DNA of 12,823 nucleotides from a virus. A program made the position numbers and the translations under genes. Shown piece after piece: positions 1,293-12,823 of the stretch (position 1 is the stretch's first letter; each line of letters starts with the position of its first letter). The DNA lies in the UHGV virus genome UHGV-1339911; one strand, written 5' to 3'. The notes under the pieces are model-generated. The model did not search any database. It was not told where the DNA came from and saw only the letters and a program-made list of their open reading frames with translations.

Positions 1293-4200
1293 TTAAATGT
1301 GATTATCCCATTCATTTTTTATTTCGTCGAATTCATTTTTAGAATTGCACATTTTTTCCCATTCCTGAATTATATTTGGTTGTACAATACCTAGACGTTT
1401 GTTGTTGCAATAAATAGATGCTGCTAATTTTGTCGCGCTAAGTTTTTTTTCTAGATAGCTTAAGTGGTCATTATTGTTAATAAATTCTTTCCCATCCTCG
1501 AATAATAGGCCAGTTAAACCGCAATGAATTTTATTCATAAACTCATCAGAAATTGTAAAATCGCTAGAGCTTATTATAAACCTGACTAAATCATAGCATT
1601 CAGGAAGACATGGATCACGATTCCAGGCTATTTTTTCACTAAGTATTGTGATAATTTCTGGTGGGTACTCTTTATTTCTTATTAGTACATATACAGAGTT
1701 TATTGCTTCAATGACTTCTGTTTTAATGAAACTATATAACCCAGAACCTATATCTTTTAATAGGTCGCTTGAATGGTTCTTTTGATTCATTAAAAGCATA
1801 GTTAGTGCAGAATTTACAGGGATTCCTGATTTTTTCATCTTTTCTATCAAGTTTGTAATATGAATAATTGATTCACTATTCAATTTATTATAGTGGATTT
1901 CTAAAATTGTAGTGATAATTCTTGTTATGTTTTTAAATCTATGTGTAAATTCTTTTGATAAATCGTCCCGTTTCTCAAGCCAAATTTTATCATTGGAAAA
2001 CCACTTATTCATTTCAGATATGATCTCAGATAAGATAGTTTCGGACGGGGTTATATGATGAAGGGCACCATTAAGTTCGTTACAATAATTGTCGTTACCA
2101 CCTGTTATAGTAACGCTATTACCATTTTGAATAGGAAAATTATATGTTTTTATAATGGAAATAAATTTATCCTGAATATTTTCATTTTCAGGGTGAAGGT
2201 TATCTATAAAGAAAAATCTATAGTAACCACTATTAATTGGAAATCCATATTCATCGCGTTTAGCCCATAGGTTTTTTATTAGTTTTGAAATATCAGACTT
2301 GTTAAGTAGATCAAGATTATACAATGTAATTAACTTTTGTGATGCTGCTTTTCTTAAATCTTGATCTTCGCTTTTTAAATCATCAATATCTTTTCTGATT
2401 TTGGAAGATGTTATTTTTTTCAATAAACCATTAGGTCGTTTGATAATTGAAGCCAGTAGACATTCAAAAGGAGTAATAAAATTATATTTTTGACCCATAC
2501 CTAAATGATCATTAGAGGGTTTCGACGGATAATCGATAAAAATATCTATGAGGGATATTTTTTGAGAGTCATTCATACTCGCTATAGTACGTCTAAGCAA
2601 ATCCTTTGTCTCAGCAAAATCATAAAACCCCTCAGAGTTATATAACTTAAGAAGAAGGGTTATTATATCTTTTTTCTTTTCAAAAGAAACTTTTGTTACT
2701 AGTCTTGATAATATTTCAGGAATGATTGATAGGGTGGATAACTCTATTTCAAGCTTATCGCTAAGTCTTTCATCTATTTTTTTTAAGATGATTTGTTCGT
2801 ACTTTTTGAAGTATCCATCAAATAAATCTTCAACTTTTTTTCTTTCTAATAAAGAGAGTCTACCACGGTTAAAAAGACTTTTTGCTTTATCTTTATTAAA
2901 TGTTCTAAATATTGCAAAAATAGCGAATTCAGGGGAGTATGGATATATATGTCGGGATGCGTTTTCAACTATGCCACTAAAAATATTCATTCCAGGTATA
3001 TGGAAAGGCAGTCCAAGTTCTTCTGCTAGCAATAGAAAGTTGAAAGCATCTAAGGATTTAAGTTCCGCGGGACTCCCACCAAAATAAGTTGTCACAGTTC
3101 TTCTGTTAAGATCAAAATCAGTATCCTTTGAATTCTCAGATATACCTTGTGGGGATTCTAGTTTGATTTCTAAATACTTAATTTCGTTTTCTGGATCGCT
3201 ACGATATTGAGATAAAGTTGCTAATCTAGAATTGTATTCTGAAGTGTAATCATCGTTCTTGTTATTATTTTTCAAGCTTCTCTTGAACATTCTTAATATA
3301 TAAATGCAATAAGCTTCTTGGGACTCACTTGAATAGTCGATGTTCCTTGATGATAAAAGACTATTTCGGCGAATAGTTGATAAAGTTTCTTCAAGAAGAT
3401 TAATGGCTTCATCGAGCATGCCAAACTCAGCAAGTAGTCCCGCTCTTTTAATTTCATACTGTGGAAGAAGTTTATTTGTTTCCCAATTTGAAAGTTTTGT
3501 TCTGGCTTCATCAAAGTTCAATCTAAAATAAGAATGTAGGATATTCTCGTAATAGAATTCAGATTTAACTTCTGGAGTTAGTCTTTCTAAATTGGGAATC
3601 AGTAAATGATTTAATTCTTTCCATTTTGCTGTGAGATTCTCTTGGCGACAAAATTTCATTAAATTAATAACGATGGCTGAATATTTATCATCCAGATCTT
3701 TGTTTATTATGTTGTTAGTGTATTCGTCTTTATATTTTTCTGTGAGTTTAAATAAAAACTCTGCTGTGTCATTAAATATAGGTAGTAATGCTTTATTTAA
3801 TCGCCAAGTTAACTCATAACCAAAATTAATTTCTGCATATTTTTCCCAAATCACATCGTAGGTAACTACTGCCAACCACTCTCTAGTATCACGCCAAAGA
3901 TTACTGCGATTAGATTCAGGCAAAATAAGCCAGTTAGGATAAGATTTTCTTAATGATCCCCACTCAATAATGCATCGATTTATTTTTTCCATTTTTATTT
4001 CAGGGGTGTCATCGAAAGAAATGTGTTCTCGATTTTTTATTATTGGCCACTCTATTAAATTTTCTTTGTTTTTTGTTTCGTAGAGGGACTCTATAAAATG
4101 TTGATGAGCTAAATAATGATCTTTGCCAAAGTCCCCAAGTAAACTCAAGTCCACGATTGATATGTTTCTTTTTTCAAGCAATTTGCGCTGTGCTTCATTG

Positions 4201-4922
4201 AATGAGAAAAGACCTATCAGATAAATTTTTGGTGAGTTTTCTGCTCCAAGATTATCTCTTATCCAGCCAATCCAGTTAAGGAAATTAGGATCATCACCAG
4301 AAAAACCAATCAAACAAAGAGTATTTTCAATGAGTGATTGCTGTACTGTATTTACAAATGGTGAGTTATCTAAAGGATATTTCCTGTAATCTTCTTCAGT
4401 AATTATAAAAGGCCGCTCTGATGGGAAGCTTCCGTGAAGTTTGATGATCCTAGGTCTTTCAGCATTCATCAAATCACTTTTATTCAGTACCACATCATAT
4501 TTTCTGGAGTCAACATATACACATGCACGCTCAAGCAACGTGTCATAGTTAGTTGTAAAAACATCAACCCATGGTAACGATAAAAGAGAGATGTGTAATT
4601 TAGATGGTTCATACTCTTTATCAGGAACATGATCCATTATCAACTTATCAAGTGTTGCACGGCCGAAGGCGGCTTGTACCTCATCGCCAAGTTTGAGTAC
4701 ATTTAAATATTTGTTTAAATTTTTCTCACAGTAAATATTTTCATAAAAAATATCGCCTAAATCATTCCACATTGGGAATTGTCGTGCCTTGTTTGTTAAA
4801 GGTTTTGCATTTCGACTAAATCCAGCACCAATGAGTATTGCTGCGCGACCATCCCAAAGGCGAGATGATATATTATTTAATAGCGGTTTGATTTTTTTCT
4901 TATTTGTCATTATATATTCCAT
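1293..4922 (-). CDS. Large SIR2-domain fusion protein (defence-associated sirtuin / DSR-like); candidate single-gene NAD-depleting anti-phage protein with an unassigned ~950-aa C-terminal region
   Basis: Uninterrupted 1209-aa ORF. N-terminal ~260 aa carry SIR2_2-type motifs in canonical order: AAILIGAGFS (aa 27-36), VFTTNYDTLLE (aa 121-131, putative catalytic Asn125), IIKLHGS (aa 159-165, putative catalytic His163), CLIGFSGDDPNF (aa 203-214). No Walker A/P-loop seen anywhere in the protein. Gene is visibly AT-rich compared with its neighbours and lies between int and the late operon. Start-codon choice (M1 at 4920-4922 vs M5) is uncertain; no strong SD for either. Confidence 0.8.
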   Translation of the reverse strand: MEYIMTNKKKIKPLLNNISSRLWDGRAAILIGAGFSRNAKPLTNKARQFPMWNDLGDIFYENIYCEKNLNKYLNVLKLGDEVQAAFGRATLDKLIMDHVPDKEYEPSKLHISLLSLPWVDVFTTNYDTLLERACVYVDSRKYDVVLNKSDLMNAERPRIIKLHGSFPSERPFIITEEDYRKYPLDNSPFVNTVQQSLIENTLCLIGFSGDDPNFLNWIGWIRDNLGAENSPKIYLIGLFSFNEAQRKLLEKRNISIVDLSLLGDFGKDHYLAHQHFIESLYETKNKENLIEWPIIKNREHISFDDTPEIKMEKINRCIIEWGSLRKSYPNWLILPESNRSNLWRDTREWLAVVTYDVIWEKYAEINFGYELTWRLNKALLPIFNDTAEFLFKLTEKYKDEYTNNIINKDLDDKYSAIVINLMKFCRQENLTAKWKELNHLLIPNLERLTPEVKSEFYYENILHSYFRLNFDEARTKLSNWETNKLLPQYEIKRAGLLAEFGMLDEAINLLEETLSTIRRNSLLSSRNIDYSSESQEAYCIYILRMFKRSLKNNNKNDDYTSEYNSRLATLSQYRSDPENEIKYLEIKLESPQGISENSKDTDFDLNRRTVTTYFGGSPAELKSLDAFNFLLLAEELGLPFHIPGMNIFSGIVENASRHIYPYSPEFAIFAIFRTFNKDKAKSLFNRGRLSLLERKKVEDLFDGYFKKYEQIILKKIDERLSDKLEIELSTLSIIPEILSRLVTKVSFEKKKDIITLLLKLYNSEGFYDFAETKDLLRRTIASMNDSQKISLIDIFIDYPSKPSNDHLGMGQKYNFITPFECLLASIIKRPNGLLKKITSSKIRKDIDDLKSEDQDLRKAASQKLITLYNLDLLNKSDISKLIKNLWAKRDEYGFPINSGYYRFFFIDNLHPENENIQDKFISIIKTYNFPIQNGNSVTITGGNDNYCNELNGALHHITPSETILSEIISEMNKWFSNDKIWLEKRDDLSKEFTHRFKNITRIITTILEIHYNKLNSESIIHITNLIEKMKKSGIPVNSALTMLLMNQKNHSSDLLKDIGSGLYSFIKTEVIEAINSVYVLIRNKEYPPEIITILSEKIAWNRDPCLPECYDLVRFIISSSDFTISDEFMNKIHCGLTGLLFEDGKEFINNNDHLSYLEKKLSATKLAASIYCNNKRLGIVQPNIIQEWEKMCNSKNEFDEIKNEWDNHI

Positions 4923-7360: not shown

Positions 7361-7580
7361 TACTATTCACTACTGTTCACTTTGATAAAAAAATTGATAA
7401 TACAGCTAGTTAAGAGGTGAAGGGTTGACAAGGCAGTATTCAGTGACTGTTCATGAGTGTTCATCGGAAGGCTGCGTGATTTATGATTTTTTTTCATCAA
7501 AAGTGAAATTTTTATTCCTAATGATTATTTTATTATTGTTCCTCACAACTATTCACCACTCTTCAGTAGTATTCAACAGA
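7361..7580. repeat. Array of iteron-like octamers related to TGTTCACC (ori-like) in the AT-rich control region
   Basis: TATTCACT 7364-7371 and TGTTCACT 7374-7381 (10-bp phasing); TGTTCATG 7448-7455 and TGTTCATC 7458-7465 (10-bp phasing); TTCACC at 7552-7557 and on the minus strand at 7416-7421. No ORF of 60 aa or more in 7339-8060 on this strand. Confidence 0.4.
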
Positions 7581-8118: not shown

Positions 8119-8379
8119 ATGCATGATATTTCTGTTTCTGCGCCAGCTCCGGCTGCGCCATTATTTCCTGTGCTGAACCAGCATGAGCGATTTTTACGTC
8201 TTCCCGAGGTGATGCATTTATGCGGCTTGTCCCGCTCAACTATATACGACCTGATAAGCCGCGATGCTTTCCCGAAGCAGATCCCGCTTGGTGGTAAAAA
8301 TGTTGCCTGGGCACAGTCAGAGGTAAGCGCATGGATGGCGGATCGTATAAGTGCCCGCGGACGGGGATGTGATGCATAA
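8119..8379 (+). CDS. alpA: AlpA/Vis-family phage DNA-binding regulator (excisionase-like HTH)
   Basis: 86 aa. [53 protein letters not shown] is the typical AlpA/Vis helix-turn-helix core. SD GAGGG sits 7 nt upstream of the ATG. Confidence 0.85.
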
Positions 8380-9145: not shown

Positions 9146-9474
9146 TGAAATCACGCACCCTTTCCCTTTCCCTTTCACTTCGGGTAGCGTTGTATCGCCG
9201 CGCGGTAGCCTGCGCCTGGTTGAGTGCCTGCTATCAGCAAAACCGCCATCTGCAGCTCACTCTGGATGAAATTGAAACCGCTATTGCCCGTGAGCTTGAA
9301 GGATTTTATCTGCGACAGCACGGGCAAACAAAAGGCATGGAAATCGCCTGCGCTCTGCTTTCAGACCTGATGGAATCCGGCCCTCTAATGTCCTGTCCCG
9401 CACTCTCCCAGCTCGGAATAGCCGTAATGGATGAGTTATGCGTCCGTCACATCAAAAAGCCGGTTTTACACTGA
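9145..9474 (+). CDS. Hypothetical small protein (109 aa), early operon, immediately upstream of the primase gene
   Basis: Start overlaps the previous stop (TAATG) with GGAGGTGG upstream. Position is analogous to the small genes preceding alpha in P4, but homology was not verified. Confidence 0.55.
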
Positions 9475-9488
9475 GGGAGAACTGCGTC

Positions 9489-11819
9489 ATGTCAGGAATG
9501 AAAGTCAGTCAGGCCGTGAAGGCTGCCCGCGGTCACTGGGCTAAGATTCTGCCAGCGCTGGGCGTGAATATATTGAAAAATCGCCATCAGCCTTGCCCGG
9601 TCTGTGGCGGTAAAGATCGTTTTCGCTTCGACGATCAGGAAGGACGCGGAACATGGTTCTGCAATCAGTGCGGTGCCGGGGATGGTATAGCGCTTGTCAC
9701 CAGGGCACTGAATGTGGATATCAGTGAAGCAGCTGACAGGATACATGGACTGACACATGGTCTGTCTGTAGTTAATTCCGAAGTCAGGGCGTTAACCGCC
9801 GATACCGATAGCGGGAAAGATGCAGCAGCACTTGCCGCGCGACTGCTGCAAGCCTCACGTGAATCTGCCGGAAACACTTATCTTACACATAAAGGTTTCC
9901 CGGAGCATATTTGCCATGAGCTGACTTCAGCTCATAAAACCGGTGGGGTGATGTTCCGCCCCGGTGATTTGATCGTCCCGCTCTATAACGCTGACGGGGA
10001 GCTGGTGAATATTCAGCTTATCAGTGGCAATGGTAGCAAGTGTTTTCTTAAAGGAGGTCAGGTTAAGGAGGCCTATCATCTGATAGAAGGGGGCGGGAGT
10101 TCTTTAAGAAGGATGTGGATTGCGGAAGGTTACGCCACGGCGCTTACCATTCATCATCTGACAGGAGAAGCCGTCATGGTGGCATTTTCGTCGGTCAACT
10201 TTCTTTCTCTGGCCAGCGTTGCCCATAACAAGTATCCGGGATATCAGTTAATTATTGCAGCGGACCGCGATCTGAATGGTTCAGGCCAGAACAGGGCTGA
10301 AACTGCTGCAAAAGCGTGTCAGTGTGACATTGTGCTGCCACCGGTTTTTGGTGACTGGAATGATGCGCTTACCCAATACGGAGAGGAATCCACCCGGAAG
10401 GCAATTCTTGAGGCTTTGAAGCCACATAATGCCAGTCCTTTCGACACAATGAGTGAAGCAGAATTCACAGCGATGAGTGTCAGCGAAAAAGCTCAGAGGG
10501 TTCGGGAGCATTACAGGGATGCACTGGCGGTTGATCCGAACGGGCAGCTTTTATCCCGCTACGAGTCTGGAGCGTGGAAAGTGATTTCTCAGTCAGATTT
10601 TTCCCGAGATGTCGCAGCCCTTTTCCAGCGCCTCGGTGCACCGTTTTCCTCAGGAAAAATTGCCTCACTGGTGGAAACATTAAAGTTAATTGTTCCGCAG
10701 CAGCAAAATCCGGCACGTCATCTGATTGGTTTTCGTAATGGCGTCCTCGATACGCGAACAGGGCTTTTTAGTCCGCACTGTAAAGAGAACTGGCTGCGTA
10801 CCCTGTGTGAAGTCGATTTCACGCCACCGGTAAAGGGGGAAACGCTTGAAACTCATGCCCCGGCATTCTGGCGCTGGCTGGACCGGGCTGCCGGACACAA
10901 GCCAGCTAAACGCGACATTATTCTTGCGGCGTTATTTATGGTGCTGGCGAACCGCTATGACTGGCAGCTCTTTCTGGAAGTGACTGGCCCTGGTGGAAGT
11001 GGCAAAAGTATTCTGGCTGAAATTGCGACCATGCTTGCTGGAGAGGATAACGCCACCTCTGCGACCATTGAAACGCTGGAGTCCCCGCGAGAACGTGCGG
11101 CTCTGATAGGTTTTTCTCTTATTCGCCTGCCTGATCAGGAGAAGTGGAGCGGCGACGGCGCCGGGCTTAAGGCTATAACTGGTGGCGATGCGGTATCGGT
11201 GGACCCCAAGTATCAGAATGCTTATTCAACACATATTCCGGCGGTTATCCTGGCCGTAAATAATAATCCTATGCGCTTCACTGATCGTAGTGGTGGTGTG
11301 TCCCGCAGGAGAGTGATTCTGCATTTTCCTGAGCAGATAGCACCGGAAGAACGCGATCCGCAGCTGAAAGATAAAATTGCTCGAGAACTGGCTGTGATTG
11401 TTCGCCAGCTCATGCAGCGTTTCAGCGATCCGATGAGCGCCAGAACATTGCTTCAGTCGCAGCAGAATTCAGATGAGGCTCTCACCATCAAGCGTGATGC
11501 TGATCCAGCATTTGATTTTTGTGGCTATCTTGAGGCATTACCTGACACCAACGGTATGTTTATGGGGAACGCTAATATTGTCCCACGCCAGCCACGTACC
11601 TACCTTTACCATGCCTACCTCGTATACATGGAGGCTAATGGCTATAAAAACATCCTGAGTCTTACGATGTTTGGCAAAGGGTTGCCAGTCATGCTGAAGG
11701 AGTACGGGCTACATTATGAGAAACGGCGAACTAATCAGGGAATGCAAACTAACCTCACTTTGAAAGAGGAGAGTAATGCAGACTGGCTGCCCAAGTGTGA
11801 TGAGCCAATATTAAAATAA
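9489..11819 (+). CDS. P4 alpha-type bifunctional DNA primase/helicase (zinc-binding primase domain, TOPRIM, P-loop helicase)
   Basis: Zn-finger CPVCGG...FCNQCG; TOPRIM-like acidic motifs (WIAEGYATALT, IIAADRD); Walker A VTGPGGSGKS. I prefer the start at ATG 9489 (MSGMKVSQ...), preceded by GAGGGAGA, over the ORF-track start at 9438. Confidence 0.9.
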   Translation: MSGMKVSQAVKAARGHWAKILPALGVNILKNRHQPCPVCGGKDRFRFDDQEGRGTWFCNQCGAGDGIALVTRALNVDISEAADRIHGLTHGLSVVNSEVRALTADTDSGKDAAALAARLLQASRESAGNTYLTHKGFPEHICHELTSAHKTGGVMFRPGDLIVPLYNADGELVNIQLISGNGSKCFLKGGQVKEAYHLIEGGGSSLRRMWIAEGYATALTIHHLTGEAVMVAFSSVNFLSLASVAHNKYPGYQLIIAADRDLNGSGQNRAETAAKACQCDIVLPPVFGDWNDALTQYGEESTRKAILEALKPHNASPFDTMSEAEFTAMSVSEKAQRVREHYRDALAVDPNGQLLSRYESGAWKVISQSDFSRDVAALFQRLGAPFSSGKIASLVETLKLIVPQQQNPARHLIGFRNGVLDTRTGLFSPHCKENWLRTLCEVDFTPPVKGETLETHAPAFWRWLDRAAGHKPAKRDIILAALFMVLANRYDWQLFLEVTGPGGSGKSILAEIATMLAGEDNATSATIETLESPRERAALIGFSLIRLPDQEKWSGDGAGLKAITGGDAVSVDPKYQNAYSTHIPAVILAVNNNPMRFTDRSGGVSRRRVILHFPEQIAPEERDPQLKDKIARELAVIVRQLMQRFSDPMSARTLLQSQQNSDEALTIKRDADPAFDFCGYLEALPDTNGMFMGNANIVPRQPRTYLYHAYLVYMEANGYKNILSLTMFGKGLPVMLKEYGLHYEKRRTNQGMQTNLTLKEESNADWLPKCDEPILK

Positions 11820-11830
11820 CGATTAACTGA

Positions 11831-11855
11831 CCCGGCTGATGCCGGGTTTCTTATT
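11831..11855 (+). terminator. Rho-independent terminator after the primase gene
   Basis: Stem CCCGGC / GCCGGG (11831-11836 and 11841-11846), loop TGAT, followed by TTTCTTATT. Begins 12 nt after the primase stop. Confidence 0.6.
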
Positions 11856-11877
11856 GGAAACGCACAAATGTAGAGAT

Positions 11878-12090
11878 AGCTGTTCACTCTTCACCTAGCT
11901 GTTAACACATAATCAATTGATATATATGTAAAAAATTACAGGGTGAATAGTGTGCATGGTTTTGCGAAAAAAAAGTATTTTTTGTAGAGTCAAGTCCCGG
12001 TTTGGATCCGTTTAACGGAACCTAACTGGATTGACTATTTCTCTGAGAATTTTTGGATAAATAATCAACAAAAATCAAAATGTGAACAGA
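11878..12090. repeat. Iteron-like octamers (crr-like) downstream of the primase gene
   Basis: TGTTCACT 11881-11888, TTCACC 11890-11895, AGCTGTT duplicated at 11878-11884 and 11897-11903, GGTGAATA 11942-11949 (minus-strand TATTCACC), GTGAACA 12083-12089 (minus-strand TGTTCAC). An exact TGTTCACC also occurs further right at 12773-12780. Confidence 0.4.
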
Positions 12091-12180
12091 GAATGCTGGG
12101 GGCACAAAAGGGGGCATAATTGAATTAACTATAATTAAATTTCAATTTTTACAATAAGTTAAATTTATGTGCGAGTCCGG

Positions 12181-12212
12181 CCTTCGCACCTTCGCACCTT
12201 CGCACCATCGGA
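12181..12212 (+). repeat. Tandem 8-bp repeat (CCTTCGCA) x3 plus a degenerate fourth unit
   Basis: Read directly: CCTTCGCA at 12181-12188, 12189-12196, 12197-12204, then CCATCGGA. Confidence 0.8.
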
Positions 12213-12221
12213 ACATCAATA

Positions 12222-12244
12222 GACGTCAACGGACGTTTTTTTTA
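12222..12244 (+). terminator. Terminator-like hairpin followed by a T9 run, with no annotated upstream ORF
   Basis: GACGTC-AACG-GACGT stem-loop immediately followed by nine T (12236-12244). Could end a small RNA or a short unannotated transcript. Confidence 0.4.
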
Positions 12245-12270
12245 TGACTGAAATCCGCGCCACACAAGGC

Positions 12271-12317
12271 TTTTCGCTATTTTTCGCTCAACCTAAGTCA
12301 ACCTACATCAACTTACT
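12271..12317 (+). repeat. 10-bp-phased direct repeats: TTTTCGCT(AT/CA) x2 then TCAAC(C/T)TA x3
   Basis: TTTTCGCTAT 12271-12280, TTTTCGCTCA 12281-12290; TCAACCTAAG 12288-12297, TCAACCTACA 12298-12307, TCAACTTACT 12308-12317. Helical-turn phasing suggests a protein-binding array. Confidence 0.6.
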
Positions 12318-12409
12318 GATGTGGATACAGCTACAGCTGCGGCTATATCCCGATTCGATAATGTTTGTACCCACACAAAACCCTTGAAAGGCTACAAGGC
12401 TGAAATTGT

Positions 12410-12595
12410 CTAAACCATAGAGATGATTTTTATGATCCAGTCTTTCTCTTGTTGAGATAGTTCCAGTTTGCTCACTCGTGTTAAGAAGGTATTGATCACC
12501 TGAACATCCGAATTGGTGAGCCTATTTAATAGAGCGGGTGGTATACCTTTACTAACAATTGCTTTGCGGTGACTTTCGTAGTTTTTATTACTCAT
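12410..12595 (-). CDS. Small hypothetical protein (61 aa)
   Basis: ORF with a good SD (GAGGA 6 nt upstream of the ATG at 12593-12595). No recognisable motif; could be a fragment or a small regulator. Confidence 0.4.
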   Translation of the reverse strand: MSNKNYESHRKAIVSKGIPPALLNRLTNSDVQVINTFLTRVSKLELSQQEKDWIIKIISMV

Positions 12596-12823
12596 TGGTG
12601 ATCCTCAAATATCATTGTATAGCGGCATTGATCGTTTCCAGCAACCTTTACTTACTCACTTCAAACTGCATCCTCGTAGACTGTTCCACTACAATAATCG
12701 AAAAGGCGCGGATGTCCATTCAGGTATCCCGCTAATACGTATAGCAATAACAATGGTTTATGCGGTGCGCGCTGTTCACCCTTATGCCAGATTTTTATAT
12801 TGGCAATTGCCTGCTGTAGCGAT

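Follow-up and report, generated by a model that had tools for sequence, protein, structure and literature searches.

What is a dense cluster of short repeats with a terminator-like hairpin doing in gene-free DNA close to one end of a viral genome? The genome is UHGV-1339911, of which the whole stretch analysed, one strand of 12,823 nucleotides, is called the window here; the cluster lies at 12181–12317, and an earlier note, made from the letters alone, had taken it for protein-binding architecture or for a small RNA locus ending at a T-run. The window is a P4-like satellite prophage integrated at leuX, a tRNA-Leu gene of Escherichia coli and the classical attachment site of P4, and the cluster straddles attR, the attachment site at the right end of the prophage. 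The repeats are genuine and non-random, yet they are three unrelated adjacent leftovers: a slipped copy of the tRNA end, a displaced leuX terminator and the decayed integrase-proximal (P') arm of an older island. We give this joint reading, in which the cluster is an ordinary scar, a probability of about 0.82; homology, the positions of the parts, copy-number variation, covariation in the terminator and loss of the integrase gene are all direct observations in its favour. The parts are as follows.

12172–12207 (+): the P4-like element's attR core, which copies part of the leuX 3' end (CGAGTCCGGCCTTCG...CACCA), recognised by a 15-mer in common with the leuX 3' end of locus L001 and by alignments to intact leuX
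12208–12243 (+): displaced leuX trailer and intrinsic terminator; in loci L002 and L003 and in many species the CCA end of intact leuX leads into identical sequence
12244–12287 (+): leader block of the older P' arm, with CTGAAATCC at 12248, CAAGGCTTT at 12265 and TTTTCGCT at 12271 and 12281, from alignments of leuX-to-int spacers
12288–12317 (+): three TCAAC units in 10-bp phase (12288, 12298 and 12308), remnant of a four-unit TCAAY array; no phased triplet in 200 shuffles
12318–12346 (+): decayed direct integrase arm-type repeats GATGTGGATAC and TGCGGCTAT, against intact GCGGGTACA and GCGGGTAT in the clade A arm comparison
12354–12395 (+): rest of the integrase gene (int) control region, with TTCGATAAT (12354–12362), conserved in all the arms compared, the inverted arm-type repeat GTACCCAC (12367–12374) and GAAAGG, resembling a ribosome-binding site (12386–12391), from alignments

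The tRNA-end fragment and the displaced leuX terminator

The last kilobase of the window is matched at 95–99% identity by E. coli chromosomes. Along L001, the best match, come ahr, tRNA-Leu (leuX), integrase, cargo, homologues of delta, psu and sid, AlpA, an Icd-like gene, the alpha primase-helicase and the cluster region, beyond which lie a truncated restriction endonuclease, an HNH endonuclease, nanS/M/C and then fim. The 5' edge of the window falls within int, and attL lies outside it. ARAGORN found no tRNA in the window, so the core at 12172–12207 is a fragment and not a gene.

Inside this core stand three exact copies of CCTTCGCA (12181–12204), as the earlier note had described, followed by an imperfect fourth unit, CCATCGGA; the triplet is beyond chance, being absent from 200 dinucleotide-preserving shuffles of the window. 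The leuX 3' end of L001 reads CGAGTCCGGCCTTCGGCACCA, of which window 12172–12186 repeats CGAGTCCGGCCTTCG, and alignment of the window to intact leuX gives ...CCTTCG-CACC[TTCGCACC][TTCGCACC]A, that is, the tRNA end minus one G (of CGGC) and with two extra 8-bp units. Compared with the last 20 bp of leuX (GAGTCCGGCCTTCGGCACCA), 14–15 bp are identical (12172–12186), the terminal CACCA is kept, one G is absent and the two 8-bp units are inserted.

On the window's downstream flank the number of units is two (L132), three (L133, L004 and the window) or four (L131), and the islands upstream of it are of at least four unrelated kinds; of the 1,196 matching records, 60 were sampled across the spread, and three units were present in about half of these. 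A single unit, with a different downstream flank, follows the window-type P4-like P arm of L134. We conclude that the unit number follows one downstream flank whatever island lies upstream, and travels with that resident flank. As the core is outside a functional tRNA it is free to change, and the array is best described as a mini-repeat prone to slippage, presumably the mechanism of its growth, in a non-functional tRNA fragment. The core of L006 has a different duplication (CCTTCGCCCCATCGCACCATCG). In Salmonella enterica subsp. arizonae (L082, around 2784–2810) a tRNA-like sequence (CCGGTTCGAGTCCGGCCTTCGCACCA) precedes a core that likewise has one G fewer; this is a displaced copy whose block of identity is longer, or else a copy of leuX that has been damaged.

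Directly past the core the hairpin has its stem at 12221–12227 and 12232–12238, a loop of AACG and a run of eight T residues at 12236–12243. The earlier note had called it strong and followed by nine T residues; the terminator-like hairpin is present (12221–12238), with one T fewer and a modest energy. Its significance comes from comparison, and not from its energy. In L002 and L003, where an island of another kind follows leuX, TCGGAACATCAATAGACGTCAACGGACGTCTTTTTTT stands directly 3' of the intact leuX CCA end. We assembled the spacers between leuX and int from 80 loci encoding relatives of the integrase of the L002/L003-type island, in about 75 Enterobacterales species, and from six int-bearing E. 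coli loci; 83 of these spacers have a recognisable core. A run of six or seven T residues is present in all 83, and in 82 it is immediately preceded by a hairpin of -5 kcal/mol or lower with a 6-bp stem and a 4-nt loop. The stems vary with compensation (GACGUC/GACGUC, GACCUC/GAGGUC, GUCACC/GGUGGC, GUCGCC/GGCGGC and others). Across 24 distinct sequences all 144 pair cells hold standard pairs and four of the six pairs have changed on both sides; covariation scores 0.635, which none of 500 shuffles reaches (shuffles score 0.248), and pairing slid out of register scores at most 0.10 in the same 24 sequences. The leuX gene of K-12 MG1655 also has a hairpin and T-run.

On this comparison the hairpin and T-run are the predicted intrinsic terminator of leuX, cut off from its tRNA by an insertion of about 12 kb. 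Here the terminator follows a mere fragment, so there is no tRNA to terminate. In P4-like lysogens the functional leuX leads into the P4-type P' arm instead of its own terminator. The first T-run of that arm after leuX (AATCAATGNTTGCAGCGATTTTTT; L001 2437–2520 and L135–L138) has a weak hairpin only, and P4 integration may swap a good leuX terminator for a poorer one.

The leuX-to-int control region and its decayed copy

Window 12208–12395 is homologous to the entire leuX-to-int spacer of intB/KpLE2-type islands, at 84% identity to L002, 94% to L007 over the last 95 bp and about 80–94% to the arms of integrase clade A. From 80 distinct spacers a blueprint can be drawn up: the terminator; TGYCTRAAATCC..CAAGGCTTTyC..GCTTTTyC; four 10-bp TCAAY units; the arm repeats, two direct and one inverted around a conserved (G)GTTCGATAAT; a ribosome-binding site; and the ATG of int, an intact spacer measuring about 190 bp. 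Both the array of four TCAAY units and the arm repeats typical of each clade are conserved throughout Enterobacterales, K-12 leuX-intB included.

Each remaining repeat of the cluster has its place in this blueprint. The two TTTTCGCT units and the three TCAAC units at exact 10-bp spacing are present as the earlier note had listed them, and its statement that no open reading frame (ORF) of 60 amino acids or more covers the cluster is also correct, the sole overlapping ORF having 47 (12244–12387). The TTTTCGCT pair, found in one of 200 dinucleotide-preserving shuffles, is the window-lineage form of the conserved GCTTTyC..GCTTTTyC pair, and the exact pair occurs only in L004, L006, L131–L133 and the window. 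TCAAY units number four in the int-bearing arms of clades A and B (about 60 species), three in the window, L004 and L007, and two in L006. Mutations have changed the window's arm-type repeats (GTGGATAC, GCGGCTAT), with a 6-bp duplication, TACAGC/TACAGC, in the gap between the two. Homology to L002, L007 and L009 ends at about 12395 by blastn, the point at which the ATG of int is expected; the integrase gene is absent. In L007, another int-less copy, a 9-bp deletion has removed half of the hairpin, and the length of the T-run varies among copies of the int-less flank.

The 2+1 arm repeats differ by integrase clade (GCGGGTAC, GAGTATA, TTGGTAC or TTGGTAT, with GGGGGCA in P4), and the matching P arms of 14 islands carry the repeat pair of their own clade about 50–60 bp 5' of the core. 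Because they recur in the matching P arms, these repeats are predicted to be the arm-type sites of the integrase (Int), as is annotated for P4. The TCAAC and TTTTCGCT units do not follow this pattern: they are not shared by both arms, no TCAAY motif being found within 170 bp 5' of 14 displaced cores, and they do not co-vary with integrase clade, TCAAY being common to clades with differing arm repeats. The intact arms do have the layout of an array for a recombination directionality factor (RDF), namely a single arm with direct repeats spaced by about one helical turn, placed after the core and before the Int arm sites; the window keeps three of the units. In PMC7498355 the sites of RDFs are said to be direct repeats at one-helix-turn spacing, and the P4 promoter Pint is repressed by both Int and Vis (PMC7286903). 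We suggest that the TCAAY units of intact arms are candidate accessory sites, either for binding of an AlpA/Vis-type RDF or for control of the int promoter, rather than Int sites.

P4-type P' arms have 10-bp-phased repeats of their own (P4 itself, L005, about 4075–4045 and 4000–3966 on the minus strand; L001, 2440–2550), reading TCCAAGACCA TCCGAGAAAG TCCAAATATC and TTCCGAGGTTG TCCGTTGAAA TCCGGATATC. They occupy the position that TCAAY units have in other leuX islands, and may be positional analogues and candidate Vis sites. A promoter scan found no promoter in the intact spacer of L009; TTCGATAAT could be the -10 element of int. A site for integration host factor was considered for the TCAAC units and dropped, comparison by eye with the consensus WATCAANNNNTTR giving no fit.

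From the end of the int arm to the endonuclease pseudogene (12396–12693) some 300 bp have no counterpart in the int-bearing loci compared and are conserved in many E. coli; an ORF of 61 amino acids within them (12410–12595, minus strand) has no Pfam match.

On this reading the present arrangement runs as follows. The attR core is a copy of the last 20 bp or so of leuX, one G short, in which an 8-bp unit presumably grew to three by replication slippage. The trailer and rho-independent terminator (a 6–7-bp stem and T-run) are DNA that followed leuX before the satellite arrived, and the pre-existing DNA downstream of them was the integrase-proximal arm belonging to an older intB/KpLE2-type island at leuX. 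That older arm is dead: a TCAAY unit has been deleted, the arm repeats carry mutations and a duplication between them, and the integrase gene has been deleted.

The right end of the satellite and competing explanations

What the resident element itself contributes lies upstream of the cluster, and the truncated gene at the right edge of the window is resident DNA.

9438–11819 (+): P4 alpha-type primase-helicase, the last satellite gene before the right end (Pfam Zn_Ribbon_Prim, Toprim_3, D5_N and Pox_D5; annotated as primase-helicase in the matching L001)
11829–11848 (+): terminator-like hairpin just 3' of alpha, counterpart of P4 t-alpha (8 pairs, 6 of them G-C, in a scan; the P4 record has t-alpha at the equivalent position)
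11881–12029 (+): crr-like region, one copy of the P4 cis replication repeat (69% identity of 11881–12027 to P4 4391–4242, inside the annotated crr)
12098–12119 (+): P4-type integrase arm-type sites of the P arm, GGGGGCACAA and GGGGGCATAA (GGGGGCAYAA twice), matching the arm repeats of P4 X51522 at 4163–4174 and 4151–4162
12694–12823 (-): 5' part of a truncated phosphorothioated-DNA-binding restriction endonuclease, resident leuX-region DNA common with O157:H7 (97% identity to L011 4686–4815; annotated as a pseudogene in L001, L004 and L006)

The crr-like region has iteron-like motifs (TGTTCAC at 11881, CTTCACC at 11889, TGTTAAC at 11900 and GGTGAA at 11942) and ends on the right in a palindrome (11997–12029). 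The P4 record X51522 annotates a 20-bp core, five 12-mer 'attP arm sequence repeats' (NNGGGGGCAYNN) and crr; the two window copies of the arm-type repeat (12098–12107 and 12110–12119) stand about 52 bp 5' of the core, the same distance as in P4. The right end has two features of a P4-type attR, the pair of GGGGGCA repeats about 50 bp 5' of the core and a position 3' of alpha and crr in an element whose opposite end carries a P4-family int beside leuX (in L001, tRNA-Leu and then int). The real P4-type Int arm sites fall just outside 12181–12317, and the satellite ends at 12207. Distant blastn of 11820–12823 against 50,697 phage records gave a single short match, to a Salmonella draft record, with P4 unmatched at that sensitivity; local blastn with a word size of 7 was required to reveal the 69–74% similarity to the crr and P arm of P4. 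In O157:H7 (L011) the endonuclease gene lies just past a truncated copy of the older-island integrase.

Several other features of the satellite lie further from its right end. An AlpA/Vis homologue is encoded at 8119–8379 (Pfam). Between int and the psu/delta/sid block, the variable-cargo position of P4-like satellites, a 1209-amino-acid ORF (1293–4922, minus strand) has an N-terminal SIR2-like domain (PF13289), and the near-identical locus L001 has a reverse-transcriptase gene at the same position. Three short intergenic 10-bp tandem arrays past the sid-like gene (TACTATTCAC at 7361–7381, AGTGTTCATG at 7435–7464 and TCACAACTAT at 7543–7565) probably correspond to the P4 ori type 1/2 iterons. 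If so, the element would have a true phased array for protein binding here, in contrast to the cluster at 12181–12317.

The place of the cluster, at the element boundary just past crr and the att core where phased direct repeats are typical, invites the view that it holds working Int arm-type, Vis, replication or packaging sites of the resident P4-like element. We hold this to be very improbable, given that the P4-type arm sites are the GGGGGCAYAA copies at 12098–12119 and that the DNA from 12208 on lies outside the element, because the same DNA follows intact leuX in genomes with no P4-like element. In L134 the window-type P arm is joined to a wholly different downstream flank, and neither the phage blastn nor the local word-7 blastn found any similarity between P4 and 12208–12823. 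What survives of the protein-binding proposal is that this is recombination-site territory at an island boundary, with relics of integrase-system sites; none of the repeats that the earlier note listed is a P4 arm-type site. Its replication sites have their counterpart upstream, in the crr-like DNA and iteron-like motifs at about 11881–12027, and for packaging there is nothing at the cluster: no type I (TGTTCACC) or type II P4 iterons and no similarity to cos were found within 12181–12317, nor any P4 similarity past the core. The note had also proposed looking for the same repeats at the other boundary; the attL arm of L001 has the GGGGGCA repeats and lacks both the CCTTCGCA array and the TCAAC units. 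Equally improbable is the small RNA gene, or tRNA-fragment transcript ending at the T-run, that the architecture of a hairpin and eight T residues behind gene-free DNA might suggest. The identity of the hairpin with the leuX terminator accounts for it fully, and the 50 bp upstream are wholly unlike between genomes that share it. No sigma-70-like promoter was found on the plus strand of 11700–12823; a search of the same interval against Rfam in E-value mode gave just two chance snoRNA-like matches (E 0.6–0.9), and none at the cluster (E ≤ 1). The locus therefore lacks the promoter of its own, conserved body and known family by which a small RNA gene would be recognised.

Somewhat less remote, though still improbable, is that the int-less arm is alive, as a secondary docking or landing site or a promoter/terminator module that affects integration, excision or tandem accretion or insulates against read-through. 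Hundreds of E. coli genomes have the flank, with an identity of at least 95% and downstream of no fewer than four unrelated islands, and the hairpin and T-run are intact in most copies. Vertical descent and linkage to the hotspot predict such a wide distribution, however, and the marks of relaxed constraint are several: three or two units in place of four, mutated arm repeats, the 6-bp duplication, the hairpin deletion in L007 and a variable T-run. Incidental simple-sequence slippage, named by the earlier note as its own refutation, is the least credible of all as a history-free origin of the whole cluster. The CCTTCGCA array with its one to four copies does act like a slippage-prone mini-repeat in a non-functional tRNA copy, and the TCAAC array drops whole 10-bp units; but the CCTTCGCA array is common to many genomes, every part of the cluster has a homologue at a defined position relative to leuX and int in about 75 species, and the hairpin has compensatory substitutions. 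Slippage holds solely for the expansion step of the 8-bp array and is contradicted for the terminator and the arm.

Some observations sit less easily with a scar made of three leftovers. The hairpin energy is ordinary (minimum free energy -6.3 kcal/mol, z = -0.14 against shuffles; seven pairs including a G-U), and the 24 sequences used for covariation had been selected for a common 6-4-6 geometry, which somewhat favours pairing. Clades C and D retain just two clear TCAAY units, and the 300 bp at 12396–12693 fall outside the explanation. Terminator activity and protein binding at the cluster are things that we infer. Exactly three 8-bp units predominate behind several unrelated upstream islands; it agrees with inheritance along with the flank, and recurrent expansion or a selective value of some kind could also lie behind it.

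The G-less core, wider meaning and known systems

The attR cores of P4-like satellites are nearly always one G shorter (CCTTCGCACCA) than the leuX 3' end, the attP of laboratory P4 having GG. The exact G-less core, GAGTCCGGCCTTCGCACCA, was found in 37 prophage contigs of IMG/VR, of which 35 have a P4-type P arm on the left, with the GGGGGCA pair 5' of the core, and at least ten different host flanks occur on the right. The P arm was joined to an intact GG core in two instances and in P4's own attP. A metagenome scan for junctions of P arm, core and P' arm in which either form was allowed returned four matches, all G-less, and in each of the seven loci with both ends of one P4-like prophage attL is GG and attR G-less. 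Site-specific recombination is conservative, so the missing G travels with the P arm, which would place strand exchange 3' of CCTTCG, within GCACCA. Tentatively, and on sequence grounds, we propose that the strand exchange made by P4-family leuX integrases falls in the last 6 bp or so of the tRNA gene (GCACCA), the '20-bp core' being mostly a core-type binding site, and that the extra units are host-side and could tune or lock excision. In an expanded array everything beyond the first GCACC would lie on the host side of the crossover and stay with the flank during island swaps, and this position would explain why the array persists while the upstream islands change. The extra units would also put a near-copy of the overlap (GCACCT) beside the binding site, through which array length could tune or lock the excision of the resident island. 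A crossover at the 5' end of the core was considered and rejected, since recurrent mutation would then be needed for every lysogen to have GG at attL and lack the G at attR. The attachment-site passages of a recent paper on P4/P2 defence hotspots, in which att was delimited by BLAST, make no mention of a G-less core.

leuX is E. coli defence hotspot 37. It is described as the defence-island locus of highest occupancy in this species (PMC12707154). For annotation, P4-like satellites at leuX end at the tRNA-fragment core (12207 here), and the hairpin and phased repeats past that point are host history and should be counted neither as regulatory DNA of the satellite nor as a small RNA. The locus presents the growth of the leuX hotspot in miniature, a newcomer taking the tRNA while the old terminator and integrase-control arm are displaced and decay. 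There are two by-products. One is a plan, conserved in Enterobacterales, of the int control region beside leuX, with the terminator, four phased TCAAY units and, around TTCGATAAT, the 2+1 Int repeats of each clade; the other is the systematically G-less attR, a cheap sequence-only handle on the position at which P4-family integrases cut. The cluster adds one more case to kinds of sequence that are well known, and a modest lead on mechanism comes with it.

These kinds can be named by comparison. The right end of the satellite resembles the att site of P4 (Pierson & Kahn 1987, as in GenBank X51522) in its succession of alpha, t-alpha, crr, palindrome, two GGGGGCA repeats and a core about 52 bp further on, in having the leuX 3' end for that core, and in having int at the other end of the element. 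P4 differs in having two crr repeat units where the window has one; the window core is one G short with a 16-bp insertion (the two extra 8-bp units), and it leads into host or older-island DNA, whereas the P4 core leads into P4's own P' arm.

The hairpin is like the rho-independent terminators of stand-alone tRNA genes, with a short G+C stem, a 4-nt loop, a T-run 14–20 nt past the CCA end and compensatory changes, except that the window copy is parted from its tRNA. For the DNA from the terminator onward the nearest counterpart is the leuX-intB spacer of KpLE2 (PR-Y) in K-12 and its Enterobacterales relatives, which have the same terminator, conserved block, TCAAY units, arm repeats, TTCGATAAT and inverted repeat; the window copy follows a tRNA fragment, has one TCAAY unit fewer and mutated arm repeats, and has lost the integrase gene. 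Like the sites of RDFs (Xis, Apl, Cox and Vis/AlpA), the TCAAY units are direct repeats in exact 10-bp phase, in one arm and on the core side of the Int arm sites. Unlike them, they are common to integrase clades with different arm repeats, and the array in the window is a truncated relic without its cognate island. The locus as a whole matches the tandem accretion of islands at tRNA hotspots, in which a newcomer sits at the tRNA and the old attL arm is shifted downstream and decays; it does not differ from this in kind, and the case is small and clean, the older island's left end being reduced to about 190 bp.

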